Assembly: GCA_043778225.1 (NCBI GenBank)
Contig: JAYWGM010000015.1
Location: 1-64,000, forward strand
Length of the DNA: 64,000 nucleotides
Origin: Deinococcales bacterium
Lineage (GTDB): Bacteria; Deinococcota; Deinococci; Deinococcales; JAAFIG01
Direction: 5' to 3'
Shown here: positions 53,634 to 62,059 of the stretch, piece after piece
How positions within the stretch are numbered: position 1 is the first letter of the stretch
Layout: every line of letters starts with the position of its first letter
The notes under the pieces: model-generated
What the model was told of the DNA's origin: nothing
What the model saw: only the letters and a program-made list of their open reading frames with translations
Databases searched by the model: none
Program-made: the position numbers and the translations under genes

Positions 53634-53709
<76 letters not shown>

Positions 53710-53712
53710 GAG

Positions 53713-53739
53713 TAAAACCCGCTCAGAGCGGGTTTTTTT
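53713..53739 (+). terminator. Terminator after tRNA-Ala
   Basis: AAAACCCGCTC-A-GAGCGGGTTTTTTT. Confidence 0.85.
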
Positions 53740-53829: not shown

Positions 53830-55419
53830 ATGGAAACTACAGACAGGCAGTTTGAAAGTATCCTCTGGGCAGCCGCCGATAAATTACGCGGTCATATGGA
53901 TGCAGCCGAATACAAGCACGTTGTTCTCGGCTTGATATTCCTGAAATACATTTCGGATGCCTTTACAGGTCAATATGAAAAAATTAAACAAGAATTTGGC
54001 ATACAAGCAGCCGAAGATCGAGACGAATACGCAGCCGAAGGTATTTTTTGGGTTCCGCCCAAAGCTAGATGGGTTTACTTACAAGAAAATGCCAAAGACC
54101 CCAAAATAGGCGCACTGATAGACCAAGCAATGGAATTACTCGAGACCGAAAACCCAAAGCAATTAAAAGGAGTTCTGCCCAAGGATTTTGGACGACCTAC
54201 ACTAGACAAAACCAAACTAGGCGAACTGATAGACCAATTCAGCAACCTAAAAATGGCAGCCACAGAAAACAATACCAACACAGACCCCACAAAGAAAAAC
54301 TCGAGCAGCAAAGATATGCTCGGGCGAGTCTACGAATACTTCCTATCCAAATTTGCCAGTGCCGAAGGTAAACTCGGTGGGGAATTCTACACACCCACCA
54401 GCGTAGTACGGGTCATTGTCGAAATGCTCGCACCATACAAAGGACGCATCTACGACCCTGCCTGCGGCTCAGGTGGAATGTTTGTCAATAGCGAAAAATT
54501 CGTCGAAGCCCACGGTGGAAAAATAGGCGATGTCAGCATCTACGGACAAGAAAGCAACCCCACAACATGGAAACTCGCCAAAATGAACCTTGCCATTCGC
54601 GGACTAGAAGCCAACCTAGGCACACAAAACGCCGATACCTTCCACAACAACCAGCACCCAGACTTACGCGCCGATTACATCCTTGCTAATCCACCCTTTA
54701 ATATCTCCGATTGGGGCGGCGAAAACCTACGCCAAGACCAACGCTGGCAACACGGCACACCACCCAGCAGCAACGCCAATTACGCATGGATGCAGCACAT
54801 GATTTACCACCTTGCACCAAATGGCATTGCAGGATTTGTCCTTGCCAACGGTTCACTCAGCAGCAACTCGAGCGGTGAAGGCGACATTCGCCAAAAAATA
54901 ATCGAAGCTGACTTTGTAGACTGCATTGTATCCCTACCCGGACAACTCTTTTACACCACACAAATACCAGTCGCTCTTTGGTTCTTAGCCCGCAACAAGA
55001 AAAACGGACGAGGACTCGAAGGACGCACCCTCCGCGACAGAAGCCACCACACCCTATTCATAGACGCACGAAAACTCGGATACATGGAAACTCGAGTCAA
55101 CCGCAATTTTACCGACACAGACATTGCCCAAATAGCCGATACCTACCACAACTGGCGCGGCGACGGACAACAACAATACACAGACCAAGCCGGATACTGC
55201 AAAAGTGCAAACCTTGAAGAAATCAAAACCCACGGGTATGTTCTAACCCCCGGACGATACGTTGGCATAGAAGCCCAAGTACCAGACAGCGAACCATTTG
55301 AGCAAAAAATGCAACGCCTCACCCAACAACTCCAGACCCAATTTGAACAAAGCACCATTCTCGAGCAACAAATCAAAAATAATCTGGAGAAACTAGGCTA
55401 TGCCCTACAACCCAAATAA
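53830..55419 (+). CDS. hsdM: Type I RM methyltransferase subunit
   Basis: [29 protein letters not shown]. Confidence 0.96.
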
Positions 55420-55548
55420 ACACCACCAACAAGGCATCAGATGATAAAAACCACGAAATTTATAATTTGGGTTTGAATAATTTTTTTGTAACTCGAGCCA
55501 AAACAAGTGATCAACAGCGAATTGATAATTTACCCTAAGGATTCTAAT

Positions 55549-56616
55549 ATGGCGCTTACACGCAAAAAAAACACAACTAAACCAGTAACTCAGGGTTTAC
55601 AAGGTTACGAAGTATTCATTAAAGAATTAAAACATTACATTCAACAAACCCAAGTGCGTGTCGCCATGACCGTTGGGCGCGAAGTATCCCAGCTTTACTG
55701 GCAAGTAGGTCAAAAATTTGTACTTGCCCAACAACAACATCAATGGGGCGATAAGATTTTAGAACAAGTTGCGGCTGATCTAAAAACAGCTTTTCCTGGG
55801 GTACAAGGTTTTTCAAAAGCCAATTTATACCGCATGAGAGCCTTTTTTTTAGCTTATCAAGATCAGAATTCAATTGTCGCACAAGCTGTGCGACAATTGC
55901 CTTGGGGTCATAATGTTGTTTTGTTACAAAAAATTAAAAATCCTAACGAACGGTTATGGTACGCACAGCAAATTCTCGAGTTTGGAATGAGTCGTTCAAT
56001 ACTAGAATTACAAATTCAAAATGGGCTATATCACCGGCAAGGTAAAGCCCTGACTAATTTTTCGACCACATTACCACCACTTCAATCTGATTTAGCGCAA
56101 CAAATTCTGAAAGACCCCTATAATTTCGATTTTTTAACCCTAGGTCAAGATGCCCATGAATTATCACTTGAACGAGGTTTACTCGAGCATCTGAAATTAT
56201 TTTTACTTGAACTTGGTGTTGGCTTTGCTTTCGTGGGAAGTCAATATCATCTCGAGGTGGGTGCAGAAGATTTTTATATTGACTTATTATTTTATCATTT
56301 GAAATTACGGGCTTTTATTGTGATTGAACTTAAAGCCCGAGAAGTAAAACCTGCCGATATAGCCCAAGTAATGGGTTACGTGGCTGTCGTGGATGAACAA
56401 TTGCGACATGAATCGGATGCGTCTACAATTGGTTTGGTTTTAGGTAAGGGCAAAAAATCGGTTATGGCAGAGTACGTTCTAAAAAATGTTAAAGCTCCGA
56501 TTGGAATTGCTGAGTATTTTACAGCCGAGACGTTACCAAATGACCTCGAGGCGGATTTGCCAAGTGTGGAGTTGCTTGAGGCGGAATTGGCTAAGTTGGG
56601 TGGTCTGGATGAATAA
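55549..56616 (+). CDS. YhcG/DUF1016 PD-(D/E)XK nuclease family protein
   Basis: GFSKANLYRMR, LPWGHN, KDPYNFDFL, IDLLFYHLKLR..VIELK. Confidence 0.92.
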   Translation: MALTRKKNTTKPVTQGLQGYEVFIKELKHYIQQTQVRVAMTVGREVSQLYWQVGQKFVLAQQQHQWGDKILEQVAADLKTAFPGVQGFSKANLYRMRAFFLAYQDQNSIVAQAVRQLPWGHNVVLLQKIKNPNERLWYAQQILEFGMSRSILELQIQNGLYHRQGKALTNFSTTLPPLQSDLAQQILKDPYNFDFLTLGQDAHELSLERGLLEHLKLFLLELGVGFAFVGSQYHLEVGAEDFYIDLLFYHLKLRAFIVIELKAREVKPADIAQVMGYVAVVDEQLRHESDASTIGLVLGKGKKSVMAEYVLKNVKAPIGIAEYFTAETLPNDLEADLPSVELLEAELAKLGGLDE

Positions 56617-56646
56617 TTTTTTTGTGGCTCGAGCCAAGGCGAATTT

Positions 56647-57918
56647 ATGAACAATGTAACTGTATACCGTTTCTCTGATTTATTTGAGAAAATAGTTGAT
56701 AATCGAGGTAAGACAGTACCGACTGAAGATTCTGGGATGCCGCTAATCGCAACGAATTGTATTAAAAATGATTCGTTGTATCCTGTATACGAAAATGTCA
56801 GGTTTATTTCTGATGAGACGTATAAAACTTGGTTTCGTGGACATCCAGAACCTAATGATCTAATTTTTGTTTTGAAAGGCTCACCGGGGCGCGTATGTAT
56901 AGCCCCTGATCCAGTAGATTTTTGCATTGCACAGGATATGGTGGCTTTACGTCCTGACGATACGAAAGTTTATTGGAAATTTTTATTTGCTCTTTTAAGA
57001 TCATCAGAAATGCAGTCTAAGATTGGGAATATGCACGTTGGCACTTTAATTCCACATTTCAAAAAGGGTGATTTTGATAATTTGTATTTGTCTATTCCAG
57101 ATAGAAAAACTCAAGAATTTATTGGGGATTTATATTTTTTAATCTCGAGTAAAATCGAATTGAACCGTGCTACCAATGCTACGCTCGAGGCTTTGGCGCA
57201 AACCCTTTTCAAATCTTGGTTTGTGGATTTTGATATTGTGAAAGCCAAAGCGCTTGGTCTCGAGCCAAAGGGTGTGGATGCCAGTACAGCCGCATTATTT
57301 CCAAGTGCTTTTGTTAGCTCGAGCATGGGCGAAATTCCAGAAGGCTGGGAAATAAGAGGAATAGATAGTATTGCAGATTTTTTGAATGGTCTTGCGATGC
57401 AAAAATACCCTCCAAAAAGCAATTTGTCATTACCTGTTATTAAAATTGCCCAACTTCGTAAAGGTGATACTGTCGGCGCTGACCGAGCGAGTACAGAATT
57501 GCCAGAAGATTACATTATACAAGATGGAGACGTACTTTTTTCATGGTCGGGAAGTCTGGAAGTCGTGATGTGGACAGGTGGAATTGGCGCACTGAATCAG
57601 CATTTATTCAAAGTTACTTCTCAGGAATACCCAAAATGGTTTTATTACCTTTGGACGCTCGAGCATTTAGCGGAATTTAGACATATTGCCGAAAGTAAAG
57701 CAACGACAATGGGACATATCCAAAGAAAACATTTGAGCCAAGCTCGAGTGAATGTCCCGCCTCGAGAAATCCTTGATAAGCTCGGAGCAATTTTAGAACC
57801 GCTTGTTGAAAATATGTACTTAAATAACCTTGAATCTAAACGACTTACCACTACTCGAGATTCGTTGCTTCCTAAGTTGCTGTCTGGGGAAATTGAAGTT
57901 GGAGACATAATCATATGA
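56647..57918 (+). CDS. hsdS: Type I RM specificity subunit
   Basis: Two TRDs, central KIELN...LEALAQTLFKSWFVDF...IPEGW, C-terminal RDSLLPKLLSGE. Confidence 0.94.
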   Translation: MNNVTVYRFSDLFEKIVDNRGKTVPTEDSGMPLIATNCIKNDSLYPVYENVRFISDETYKTWFRGHPEPNDLIFVLKGSPGRVCIAPDPVDFCIAQDMVALRPDDTKVYWKFLFALLRSSEMQSKIGNMHVGTLIPHFKKGDFDNLYLSIPDRKTQEFIGDLYFLISSKIELNRATNATLEALAQTLFKSWFVDFDIVKAKALGLEPKGVDASTAALFPSAFVSSSMGEIPEGWEIRGIDSIADFLNGLAMQKYPPKSNLSLPVIKIAQLRKGDTVGADRASTELPEDYIIQDGDVLFSWSGSLEVVMWTGGIGALNQHLFKVTSQEYPKWFYYLWTLEHLAEFRHIAESKATTMGHIQRKHLSQARVNVPPREILDKLGAILEPLVENMYLNNLESKRLTTTRDSLLPKLLSGEIEVGDIII

Positions 57919-58961
57919 AGTTTCTTCAGGCAGAATTTGAACAAGATTTACTCGCAGAGATTGATGATAGTGGAGCAATCCGTATTGGCGAATCTTTATT
58001 TAGTCCTGTTGATATTTTGAGTAGTGACCAAGAAGCGTATGAAAACGAACTGACACTGTGGCGATCAGAGGTGTGGTTGCCACCAAAACTCGAGAAATTA
58101 AAGAAAATTCTTGAACTTGAAAATAACCAGCATCGGTTTGCAGATTTACTCGAACTCTTATTACGGAACAAAGTTGTCCCATTTGTTGGTTCTGGTATGT
58201 CCGCTTCTTCAAGTATGCCAATGTGGACAAAGTTTTTATGGCAACTTCAAACACAATCTACTTTGGCTGCAACAGATCTACAGGCTATGATTGATGCTGG
58301 GAATTATGAAGATGCGGCTTCGGCACTGATTGCTAATATGCCCAATCCACTATTTAACGAAAAGTTAGAGCAGACATTTCGAGCAAGACAATTAGATAAT
58401 GTTGTAGGTGCGGTCAAGTACCTACCACGTATTTTTGCTTCAACTGTTGTAACTACAAATTATGACAACATTTTAGAATTGGTTTTTCAGGATTTGGAAA
58501 TTGAATTTGACGAAATTTTATTTGGGAAACGAATAGAAGACCACTCAGAGTTTCGTCGTAATGAACAACGTTGCTTATTGAAATTGCATGGCGATTTTAG
58601 AAGACCATCTACTCGAGTTTTAACTAAGCCTGAGTACGACTCATGTTATCAAGAGGGTAGTGCTTTCAAAGCAGAATTATCTCTTATTTATCAGGCAAAT
58701 TCATTGTTGTTTCTTGGCTGTAGTTTACAGAATGACCGAACAGTTTCTTTGTTGGCTGAGGTTGCATCAAGAGACCCAACTATGCCACGTCATTATGCTT
58801 TTTTGGCTTCACCAGACACCCCAGAAGATAGAATAAGACGTGAACATTTTTTAACAGACCGAAAAATTTTTCCTATCTGGTATCCTGTTTTAGAACATAA
58901 TCACGATGAACCAATCGAAGCGCTTTTAATCGGTTTAATGCAAGGTTTAGGGAAAATATGA
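57915..58961 (+). CDS. SIR2-like (SIR2_2) domain protein with an acidic N-terminal extension
   Basis: VPFVGSGMS...[33 protein letters not shown] overlaps at both ends. Confidence 0.9.
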
Positions 58962-61900
58962 GTCAAAATTTTAACGAAAATACTGTTGAACAAGCCACGC
59001 TCGAGTGGTTGCGTGGTCTTGGTTACGAGTACGAATTTGGTCCGAGTATTGCGCCAGAAGAAAAACGTGCCGAACGAGCTTCTTTTCGTGAGGTGTTGCT
59101 CCTCGAGCGTTTGCGGGTTGCTTTGCAGCGTTTGAATCCCACTGCTCCTCTAGCGGCACTCGAGGAGGCGGTACGGCGTGTTTCCACACCAGAATTTCCT
59201 GCGTTAATGCAGAACAATCGGGCGTTTCATAGGTTGCTTGCCGAGGGTGTCGAAACCGAGGTGCTGCAAGATGGTGTGTTGCGTGGTGTGCTGGTGCGTT
59301 TGGTGGATTGGGATAATGTGGATGCCAATAATTGGTTGGTGGTTAATCAATTAACGGTTGTGGATGGGCAGATTAACCGTCGTCCAGATGTTGTGGTGTA
59401 CTTGAATGGGTTGCCAATTGCGGTCATTGAACTTAAAAACGCGGCGGATAAGAAAGCCACCATCGAAAATGCGTATCAGCAGCTTAGGACGTATCAAAAT
59501 CAAATTAGTCGATTGTTTGTTTTTAATGCCTTGTTGGTTATTTCCGATGGTGTGCAGGCTCGGCTTGGTTGTGTTGGGGCAGAAATGGAGCGTTTCCAAC
59601 CGTGGAAAACTGTTTCTGGTACAGAATTACTGCCCGAATCTCTGGAGACGCTGATTAAAGGTGTCTTTGACCGTTCGCGTTTACTAGCGTTCCTGCGTGG
59701 TTTTATTGTTTTTGAGGATTTTGGCTCGAGTATTCAAAAGAAAATTGCGGCGTATCATCAGTTCTTCGCGGTGCAAAAAGCCTTGCAGAGTACCGTAGTG
59801 GCTTCAAGTGCGGCTGGCGATGGCAAAGGCGGTGTGGTCTGGCATACCCAAGGAAGCGGTAAGAGTTTAACAATGGTGTTCTTCGCGGGTGGCTTGGTGC
59901 AAAGTGCAGCGCTGGCAAATCCAACCATTGTTATTTTGACAGACCGTAACGATTTAGACGATCAGTTATTTGGGACATTCTCGAGGTGTAAGGATTTGTT
60001 GCGTCAAACGCCTGTACAAGCGGGTAATCGGGCGGATTTGCGGGGGTTACTCGAGCGTGAGGCGGGTGGGGTGGTTTTTACAACCATTCAAAAGTTCTTA
60101 CCCGAGGAACGCGGTGATAAATTCCCAAGGTTATCGGCGCGGCGTAATATCGTGGTTATTGCCGATGAAGCGCATCGCAGTCAGTATGGTTTTGAAGCCA
60201 AAGTGGATTTGCAAACAGGGGATTTGCGTTATGGTTTCGCGCAGAATGTACGCGATGCGCTACCAAACGCTACTTTTCTTGGTTTTACGGGTACGCCAGT
60301 CGAAAGTACCGATAAGAACACCCGAGGTATTTTTGGTGAGTACATTGATATTTACGATGTGCAACGGGCAGTGCAGGACGGCGCGACTGTGCCTATTTAT
60401 TATGAGTCTCGGTTAGCTAAACTCGATTTGCTCGAGTCGGAAAAACCGCGTTTAGATGATGATTTTGAAGAAGTAACCGAGGGCGAAGAAGCCTTTAGTA
60501 AGGAAAAACTGAAATCTAAATGGGCGCAACTCGAGGCGCTGATTGGTACGAAAAAGCGGCTTGAGCAAATTGCAGCCGATTTGGTGCAGCATTTTGAAGC
60601 ACGGCAAGATGTGTTGCTTGGTAAGGGCATGATTGTTTGTATGAGTCGCCGTATTTGTGTGGATTTGTACAATGAACTGATTAAATTGCGTCCGACTTGG
60701 TTTGGTGCGTCTGATACAGAAGGTGTGCTTAAAGTGGTGATGACAGGTGCGGCTTCTGACCCTGACGATTGGCAACCGCATATTCGTTCTAAAGCCAGAC
60801 AGCGTGATATTGCCGAGCATTTTCGGGATGATACTTCCAATCTTAAATTGGTCATTGTGCGTGATATGTGGCTGACAGGTTTTGATGTGCCGTGTTTGCA
60901 CACCATGTACTTGGATAAACCAATGCGTGGACATGGGTTAATGCAGGCGATAGCTCGAGTCAATCGGGTTTTTAGTAATAAGCCAGGTGGTTTGGTCGTG
61001 GATTACCTTGGTTTGGCGAATAATTTGCGTGAGGCATTGGTCACGTACACCAGTAGCGGTGGGCAGGGTGCGCCGACGCTTGACCAAGAAGCGGCTTTTG
61101 CAGTGATGCAGGAAAAACTTTCGATTTGCCGTGGTTTATTTCATGGTTTTGATTACTCGGATTTTATGACTGGTTCACCATCTGATCGGGTGGCGATTCT
61201 GCCCGAAGCTCAGGATTTTATTTTGGCTCAAGATCGCGTAAAAGGTAAGGAACGCCTGATTAAAGCCTCGCTTGAACTTGCCAAAGCCTTTGCGTTGTCT
61301 GTACCACTCGAGGAAGCATTGGCTTTGCGTCAAGAAATTGTGTTTTTTCAGACTGTCCGCGCTATTTTCGAGAAACGCGAAGGTACAACCAATCAAGCTG
61401 CCAGTTCAGATTTGCACGATGCGATTCAGCGTTTGGTTGAACGGGCAGTTGCGCCCGAAGGTGTGATTGATATTTTTGCGGCGGCAGGTTTGAAAAAACC
61501 TGACATCAGTATTTTATCGGATTCTTTTCTGGCAGATGTGCAAAATATGCCGCAACGTAATTTAGCCGTAGAACTGCTCGAGCGTTTAATGAAAGACGAA
61601 GTGAAAACAGGTTCTAAACGCAATTTGGTACAATCCAAGGCTTTTTCGCAAAAACTCGAGGCTGCCTTATTAAAGTATCAGAATCGGGCAATAGAAACAG
61701 CGCAAGTTATTGAAGAACTAATTGCCTTGGCTCGAGCTTACCGTGATGTGCAAAACCGAGGCGAAAGCATGGGGCTTGCCGAAGATGAAATTGCTTTCTA
61801 CGATGCTTTACAAGTCGGCGACCCTAGTCAAATCATGGCGGATGATGTGCTGCGGACTATTGCTTTAGAAGTAGCACAAACTGTGCGGAACAACACCACA

Positions 61901-62059
61901 ATTGACTGGGCGGTGCGTGAACAAGTCCAAGCAAATTTGCGGCGATTGGTTAAACGTGTATTGCGTAAATACGGCTATCCACCTGAGCAGCAAGAAGCAG
62001 CCACAAACACGGTTTTGGAACAAGCCAAATTACTGGCACAATTGAATCAGGAGACGTGA
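58958..62059 (+). CDS. hsdR: Type I RM restriction subunit
   Basis: [12 protein letters not shown]...IELK nuclease, [21 protein letters not shown]. Confidence 0.96.

Follow-up and report, generated by a model that had tools for sequence, protein, structure and literature searches.

A predicted NADase with a phage-related N-terminal module in type I restriction-modification operons: a candidate PrrC-like guard

What does a SIR2-domain protein do when its gene is embedded in a type I restriction-modification (RM) operon? The question is raised by a 64,000-nucleotide stretch of a Deinococcales genome (GCA_043778225.1, contig JAYWGM010000015.1, positions 1 to 64,000; hereafter the window), in which a 348-aa protein of the SIR2_2 family is encoded between the specificity and restriction subunits. 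An initial annotation had proposed the order hsdM-yhcG-hsdS-SIR2-hsdR, and open reading frame (ORF) and domain calls on the window bear out this order and its coordinates (Table 1). The subunits that define a type I RM system, HsdM, HsdS and HsdR, are all there, with intact catalytic motifs. By analogy with PrrC, we regard it as reasonably probable that the SIR2 protein acts as an Hsd-dependent guard of its HindI-like RM enzyme, with NAD+ destruction as its output, because the family behaves like PrrC genomically and the predicted NAD+ hydrolase (NADase) site appears intact.

A predicted SIR2 effector linked to type I RM operons

The motifs first read from the sequence are all there, namely GSGMS (residues 92-96), TTNYD (180-184), LHG (224-226) and GCS (268-270), and residues G92, G94, N182, D184, H225, G226 and G268 do not vary in any of the 154 family proteins compared, a set composed of 119 of the 120 listed homologs plus 35 full-length matches to a profile of the N-terminal domain (NTD). 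The family counts 399 homologs, and nearly all of the 120 listed are 326-374 aa long. In an AlphaFold2 model made from a 60-sequence alignment (pLDDT 94), the SIR2 Rossmann fold runs to residue 344 of 348, in agreement with the earlier statement that the protein has no C-terminal sensor. ThsA, DSR2 and KomC are the best Foldseek matches by fold; by sequence, the nearest solved proteins are these three and FAM118B. In alignments, N182 and H225 correspond to N112/H152 of ThsA (BcThsA), reported as its catalytic dyad (PMC11263360), and to N133/H171 of DSR2; the annotation of an intact NAD-binding and catalytic site is thus upheld by residues that match both enzymes and by the invariance of the dyad. 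The Rossmann fold and conserved N/H pair that mark SIR2_2 defence NADases are both found, and the protein is very probably a NADase defence effector, as judged from its sequence. The same relatives bear on another role, in which the protein would regulate the RM enzyme instead of being a toxin, either by deacylating or ADP-ribosylating Hsd subunits or DNA or through an acidic module that dampens self-restriction. Strict linkage to hsd genes (see below) fits such a regulator equally well, and ADP-ribosylating or nuclease roles have been proposed for RM-linked Sir2 proteins (Makarova 2012, PMC3506569), but the closest solved relatives are defence NADases and FAM118B, and no classical deacylase occurs among 20 sequence matches to solved proteins, which makes this role highly improbable.

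By membership, the protein falls outside PrrC, Ronin, Thoeris, DSR and SIR2-HerA. It shares its fold and catalytic N/H pair with ThsA, DSR2 and KomC, but its operon is devoid of SLOG/Macro, of the DSR2 C-terminal sensor, and of a HerA or pAgo partner; as first annotated, no HerA, pAgo or TIR partner is seen among the five operon proteins, the two window neighbours and selected cargo ORFs. Thoeris was rejected, as ThsA models match only residues 77-304 of a fold that ends at residue 344, and among the cargo ORFs scanned a ThsB-like TIR gene appears in only one family locus (L019:11881-12791, where it lies with an 8xMP membrane protein between SIR2 and hsdR). DSR1/DSR2 and Avs5 were set aside for a 348-aa protein that lacks a long C-terminal sensor or STAND region and gives weak, SIR2-only matches, and SIR2-HerA, SPARSA and Lamassu-Sir2, which call for a neighbouring HerA, pAgo or LmuB gene, because the flanking genes are hsdS and hsdR here and hsd genes at 29 loci. 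PADLOC matches to the window protein cover the SIR2 domain only (best E 1e-19), and no PrrC model appears among the Pfam, PADLOC and NCBIfam matches, SIR2_2 being the only one in Pfam.

A scan of GTDB genomes with SIR2 motifs alone, drawn from a 20-sequence alignment and sampling part of the family, returned 32 loci, of which 29 were counted as family; the three left out are long SIR2-TPR or SIR2-STAND fusions that have neither the N-terminal module nor hsd matches. The initial annotation had suggested surveying homolog neighbourhoods and would have been undermined by mostly unlinked homologs; instead, all 29 GTDB loci and three of three plasmid copies were found inside type I RM operons. In each of the 29 the SIR2 gene adjoins an hsd gene, and in 27 of 27 loci with a visible hsdS before it, the SIR2 start is offset by -8 to +34 nt relative to the stop of hsdS; in L022, at a contig edge, SIR2 precedes hsdR. 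According to record titles, these 27 loci span about 11 phyla plus one archaeon, and SIR2 identity to the query across phyla is 33-48%. Other cargo seen in these loci (RhuM, Schlafen, HepT, toxin-antitoxin pairs) sits either in the hsdM-hsdS interval or after SIR2 and before hsdR, and in none of the 27 does it separate hsdS from SIR2; a divergent Photobacterium plasmid copy has one gene between the latter two. Tree distances show co-descent of SIR2 with HsdM (Mantel rho 0.63, n=27) and HsdR (0.65, n=26; p 0.001), and leaving out three outliers lowers the two values to 0.53 and 0.59. No such correlation is seen with HsdS (0.16, p 0.08), whose mosaic nature makes a low value partly expected; rho for HsdM and HsdR is 0.92. 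No unlinked full-length family copy turned up in the GTDB scan. Thus, the linkage looks near-obligate, the near-exclusive type I RM embedding by which an RM guard would be recognised. The RM systems, for their part, can do without the gene: 173 plasmid records carry this HsdR family and at most three carry this SIR2, and among six such records sampled, five showed hsdM-S-R operons, of which four held other cargo; SIR2 was in none. As with PrrC, the dependence is one-way.

These distributions also speak to the idea of an independent passenger, a self-contained SIR2 defence gene that landed once in an hsdS-hsdR hotspot and is carried along with the operon, functionally unrelated to RM. The slot does hold varied cargo, both in family loci and in four of the five SIR2-free controls, SIR2 is the most foreign gene of the operon by third-position GC content (GC3, 0.28), and a view of such slots as genomic sinks has been put forward (Payne 2024, 10.1101/2024.01.29.577857). 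Against this, other cargo comes and goes, SIR2 keeps its position across phyla at the identities given above, and the scan found no full-length copy elsewhere, so we judge a mere passenger quite unlikely.

The closest precedent is PrrC of EcoprrI, which occupies the same hsdM-hsdS-X-hsdR slot, is embedded almost exclusively in type I RM operons and is optional for RM (PMC3014915; Payne 2024); it also provides back-up abortive infection (PMC3014915), the role predicted for the SIR2 protein. In the Payne 2024 survey, PrrC is singled out for this near-exclusivity, many other systems being embedded only a few times (10.1101/2024.01.29.577857). Unlike PrrC, an ABC-ATPase/HEPN anticodon nuclease, the SIR2 protein is a predicted NADase, the RM enzyme here is HindI-like, and the putative regulatory part is a 55-aa phage-homologous module; the analogy nevertheless suggests that it probably works like PrrC. 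Ronin (HsdMS plus RonA) likewise ties a toxin to Hsd subunits and is triggered by Ocr, ArdA or Aop1, but it has no hsdR and a 61-aa membrane toxin (Silas 2023), in contrast to the full hsdR with intact motifs and the 348-aa enzyme described here. The general idea of Sir2-RM coupling is prior art, since Sir2 enzymes were already linked to type I RM and a PrrC-like toxin coupling proposed (Makarova 2012, PMC3506569). In the text available to us, that work is a prediction that offers no family definition, NADase mechanism or N-terminal phage module. The word "sir2" is absent from the main text of the Payne 2024 survey of RM-embedded genes, as are "sir2" and "sirtuin" from the accessible text of a 2025 RM review (PMC12707154), and a literature search, mostly of papers outside subscription, found no characterisation of this SIR2 family or module.

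The N-terminal module and its phage relatives

The initial annotation had the SIR2 domain preceded by an acidic extension of about 80 residues. The extension exists, but it comprises about 55 residues, residues 57-86 being a linker helix and the first SIR2 helix, the latter of which aligns with ThsA. Its acidity is real (12 D/E in the first 50 residues), although K/R number three and not two; among 1815 segments of 50 aa taken from 52 long ORFs in the window, 0.55% have a net charge of -9 or lower, and over residues 1-56 the median charge in the family is -7. In the AlphaFold2 model the module forms a small alpha-beta fold (helix 2-11, beta-hairpin 22-29, helix 31-36 and a long helix 39-66). 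Its core, defined at family level by profile match, reads G-x-V-x-I-(A/G)-G-x-x-F-x-P-x-x-(I/V)-L-x(2-3)-D-x-x-A-Y-x-x-x-F-x-x-W, and W49 is invariant in 154 of 154 family proteins.

Judged by profile comparisons, this N-terminal stretch of ~55 residues has its homologs among phage proteins that are small and very acidic. A structure search of the Atlas with residues 1-70 found clusters of exclusively viral proteins, 74, 84 and 120 aa in length (TM 0.63-0.68), and a profile of 30 NTDs run against 1.84 billion representatives gave 130 matches, comprising 65 proteins with a SIR2 core, 31 small stand-alone proteins (picked by eye) and 34 others, mostly family fragments. The 31 small proteins have a median of 93 aa and 25% D/E and match the NTD profile at E 9e-6 to 1e-3; 30, 29 and 27 of them match PHROG 37123, 9294 and 9396, respectively, families listed as of unknown function (PHROG). 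Viral origin of these metagenomic proteins rests on the PHROG, Atlas and GenBank phage matches, the last amounting to 149, 152 and 133 phage records for three queries, mostly rV5-like and otherwise from Autographiviridae and from Vibrio, Gordonia, Microbacterium, Stenotrophomonas and Pseudomonas phages.

An HHalign comparison of the NTD alignment with that of the small proteins (98.7%) is circular, the second having been picked with the first. Three further tests are less so, bearing in mind that the phage proteins were first reached via two of the small proteins and a protein found from them. With a profile of 13 annotated phage proteins from GenBank, 116 of the 118 matches among 6146 ORFs belonged to the SIR2 family, with 33 real matches at domain E<1 vs none among reversed decoys; the profile-profile probability was 95.9% vs 0.6% for a reversed alignment; and bas54_0108, the homolog in phage Bas54, scored 31.2 bits (residues 53-85) on a SIR2-only profile vs at most 6.3 for 1000 shuffles. 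The window protein's own link to phages is transitive, running through the family (70 bits on a family profile built without it) and through the Atlas structure matches. Other searches gave little: tblastn of the window NTD against phages gave one chance match, PHROG scans of single NTDs gave nothing for the window protein, one of 60 full-length members matched phrog_37123 (E 4.4e-5), and the small-protein alignment, searched by words against proteins of greater length, gave no match, which is weak evidence.

The initial reading is borne out in part. Its likening of the domain to acidic phage proteins proves stronger than was supposed, because the module is itself related by descent to such a family, whose members, like Ocr, ArdA and sArdA, are small, strongly acidic and encoded in early or accessory regions, but no homology to Ocr or ArdA was detected, no sequence match to the solved proteins appearing at E<=10 and E<=5. 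PDB sequence searches with NTD profiles gave chance matches only. Fold searches that started from the NTD model were of no help (BFVD best E 0.41; PDB best Z 3.7, none Z>=5), and fold likeness to Ocr or ArdA is not thereby excluded. A relation to sArdA was considered and is unsupported (PMC12548430). Other architectures were seen in passing: a 141-aa Atlas cluster of Abi_C type (48% of members; TM 0.61), and P0163, a 363-aa protein in which two copies of the module are the only known domains.

What the phage family does can be approached through its genomic company and through one phenotype. The homolog is the second annotated gene in phages PS3 and PM16, the former with two copies, and in the T7-like PSTCR2 it directly follows a gene matching the T3 S-adenosylmethionine (SAM) lyase (E 1.7e-15), a known anti-restriction factor (PMC8594841). 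As a separate observation, PHROG 3199 lies directly 3' of the module gene in an rV5-like and a T7-like phage (L037:5339-5584, L042:1799-2140) and is possibly a partner. In Bas54, bas54_0108 is reported as depleted on E. coli CFE303 after C-terminal trimming, and the peer-review file describes it as the sole Bas54 gene conditionally essential on this host, with a defect in the knockout and a biology that is still being studied; it is reported as required on this isolate alone (PMC13716836). In sums from the published tables, 13 TA sites in residues 40-88 have 87 reads on CFE303 (tab S6) vs 3050 in tab S7, assigned to CFE311 by elimination, and sites from residue 95 on show no depletion, insertions being tolerated only beyond the shared module. 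The claim of conditional essentiality rests on these per-site counts, the methods text and the peer-review statement. The bas54_0108 rows are identical in tabs S8 and S9, for which different hosts would be expected (PMC13716836 supplementary file 9). Three type I RM systems are reported in CFE303, the third of PrrC type (PMC13716836). An anti-defence role of the phage family is likely.

Such a role could also mean that transfer ran the other way, the module being a host regulatory or oligomerisation domain that phages captured as a dominant-negative inhibitor of this effector and others like it, which would make the phage family anti-SIR2 and not anti-RM. Homology has no direction, and neither does a joint, unrooted 49-column tree, in which SIR2 NTDs are nearly separate (L028 and L029 fall outside them; two HEPN-like sequences and one misaligned phage sequence fall inside) and 27 of 29 non-outlier placements are uninformative on this point; bas54_0108 does behave like an anti-defence gene. 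This direction is improbable in view of the acidity of the phage family, which is far greater, as in DNA mimics, of the family member adjoining a SAM lyase, and of the lack of any SIR2 system among the DefenseFinder calls for CFE303, although this family might escape that tool.

Operon layout and variation among family loci

Table 1. Features of the RM operon and its surroundings in the window
Feature	Coordinates	Strand	Remarks
tRNA-Ala(GGC)	53634-53709	+	upstream of hsdM; context only
Terminator-like hairpin	53714-53736		between tRNA-Ala(GGC) and hsdM
hsdM, type I methyltransferase	53830-55419	+	NPPF motif intact
28-nt direct repeat, copy 1, left of yhcG	55474-55501	+	from hsdM-hsdS intergenic sequence
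yhcG/DUF1016 (PADLOC PDC-S02)	55507-56616	+	independent cargo, outside the conserved SIR2 module; 1/29 family loci
28-nt direct repeat, copy 2, right of yhcG	56610-56637	+	93% identical to copy 1
hsdS, specificity subunit	56647-57918	+	stop overlaps SIR2 start (ATGA)
SIR2_2-family protein, 348 aa, predicted NAD+ hydrolase effector	57915-58961	+	Pfam SIR2_2 E 5.5e-28; Foldseek; homologs
Acidic N-terminal module, aa 1-56 of SIR2 protein	57915-58082	+	shared core ~aa 11-52; phage-protein homology
SIR2 Rossmann domain, aa 87-344	58173-58946	+	N182 = 58458-58460; H225 = 58587-58589
hsdR, HindI-like type I restriction subunit	58958-62059	+	D144/E158/K160, GSGKS and DEAH motifs intact

Translational coupling had been proposed from ATGA overlaps at both SIR2 ends. 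The overlaps are real (57915-57918 and 58958-58961), but they carry little weight as evidence of functional coupling, since overlaps also occur at 7 of 12 junctions in five operons of this RM family that lack SIR2, vs 10 of 27 hsdS-SIR2 junctions. The yhcG gene is a separate insertion, as it is flanked by a 28-nt direct repeat and found in a single family locus. No integrase and no matching right-hand repeat were seen near the tRNA gene and RM operon, and a promoter and terminator scan gave background levels.

Base composition sets the SIR2 gene apart. CTCGAG, a strong signature of the host, occurs 421 times in the window where base composition predicts 14.6, and the SIR2 gene has only two (1.9 vs 6.6 per kb), with a GC3 that compares with about 0.5 in most long genes; with so few sites and so low a GC3, it looks recently acquired. 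Third codon positions are A/C-rich in hsdM (G 0.09) and G/T-rich in hsdR, and these opposite skews suggest that the operon is a mosaic of different origins. The closest plasmid HsdR is that of Deinococcus grandis (64.6%).

Some family loci depart from the common pattern. A short duplicated 5' piece of hsdR follows the SIR2 stop in L001, L004 and L016 and, by sequence, in L003, L005, L007 and L008; it precedes extra cargo (often RhuM or Schlafen-like) and then, where visible, a full hsdR, suggesting that cargo enters by recombination at the hsdR start. Apparent hsdR breaks in L004 are assembly gaps. In L018:3083-4130 SIR2 is frameshifted beside an intact hsdR, through either real loss or assembly error. 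A 399-aa Photobacterium/Vibrio subfamily occupies the same slot (L034:7680-8879, L054:6001-7200); its N-terminus is module-like by eye and by tblastn from L030, and scores only 1.4 bits on the profile.

A candidate guard of the restriction enzyme

If the SIR2 protein guards the RM enzyme as PrrC does, it would be produced alongside the Hsd subunits and stay latent while bound to them, its N-terminal module serving as a docking element on a site also bound by acidic phage anti-restriction proteins. The prime candidate displacers would be the module's own phage homologs. Upon infection, the phage protein would displace or reshape the module, and the freed SIR2 domain could oligomerise like ThsA, KomC and DSR2, hydrolyse NAD+ and abort the infection. 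A dock from which phage proteins compete it off would be the simplest role for a phage-homologous module in such a guard, and this competitive displacement is a tentative element of the scheme. Also tentative is the fuller proposal that the module is a captured phage anti-restriction domain fused to a NADase, whereby the effector would be parked on the RM enzyme by the phage's own binding surface and competed off by the incoming phage protein. On that view, the widespread PHROG 9294/37123/9396 family (including bas54_0108) would form an unrecognised class of inhibitors of type I RM, and other effectors, e.g., the HEPN-like P0246 and P0247, would be armed by this module too. A complex prediction of HsdM with the full SIR2 protein scored 0.00, a "no answer" that says nothing either way.

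Several observations weigh against this guard model. On the genomic side, the loci share ancestry and the slot is a general cargo hotspot, with other cargo in most control operons. In L029 (L029:6735-10918, a Microbacterium isolate) the order is hsdM-hsdS-hsdR-SIR2, and hsdR has an in-frame stop beside an intact SIR2, hence full-length HsdR may not be needed to mask SIR2. The phage-only profile does not pick up the window's own NTD (-0.1 bits). A DNA mimic attached tightly to the RM enzyme ought also to inhibit that enzyme. With regard to bas54_0108, CFE303 is reported to carry also type IV RM, Druantia III, a dCTP deaminase, CRISPR I-F and PrrC; CFE311, where the gene is dispensable, also has type I RM; and the untrimmed resampling table gives a log2FC of -0.52 with an adjusted p of 1.0 (PMC13716836). 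The Vequintavirinae, which carry the homolog, are described as exceptionally susceptible to RM (PMC8594841); the opposite idea, that they resist RM, proved wrong on the same account. Lastly, the module also precedes a HEPN-like domain in P0246 and P0247, a label that is our reading of an RNEEFLH motif with no Pfam match above cut-off; P0233 is listed with these two as a fusion of the module to a putative HEPN-like domain.

This last occurrence is what would be expected of a portable sensor, and it brings in the possibility that the module binds the phage protein itself, as a look-alike of its homo-oligomer surface, and thereby clusters and activates SIR2, the RM operon providing co-expression and layered logic with no Hsd contact. 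Homology to the phage family suits such a decoy, and DNA mimics are reported as frequent direct triggers (EVADES). It leaves unexplained, however, why 32 of 32 copies with context lie in hsd operons and why SIR2 tracks HsdM and HsdR, and two strongly acidic surfaces would be unlikely partners; direct sensing of this kind is therefore rather unlikely.

Few restriction-enzyme guards have been characterised (PrrC, Ronin and EcoR22I), none of them with NAD+ depletion in the literature surveyed. The family described here is genomically PrrC-like and spread across bacteria and an archaeon, and its candidate sensor is a piece of a phage protein, so that bas54_0108, with its existing knockout phenotype, is the predicted trigger; the module link in turn suggests type I RM as the target of bas54_0108. 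If this is true, searching defence effectors for fused phage domains would pair anti-defence proteins with their targets.

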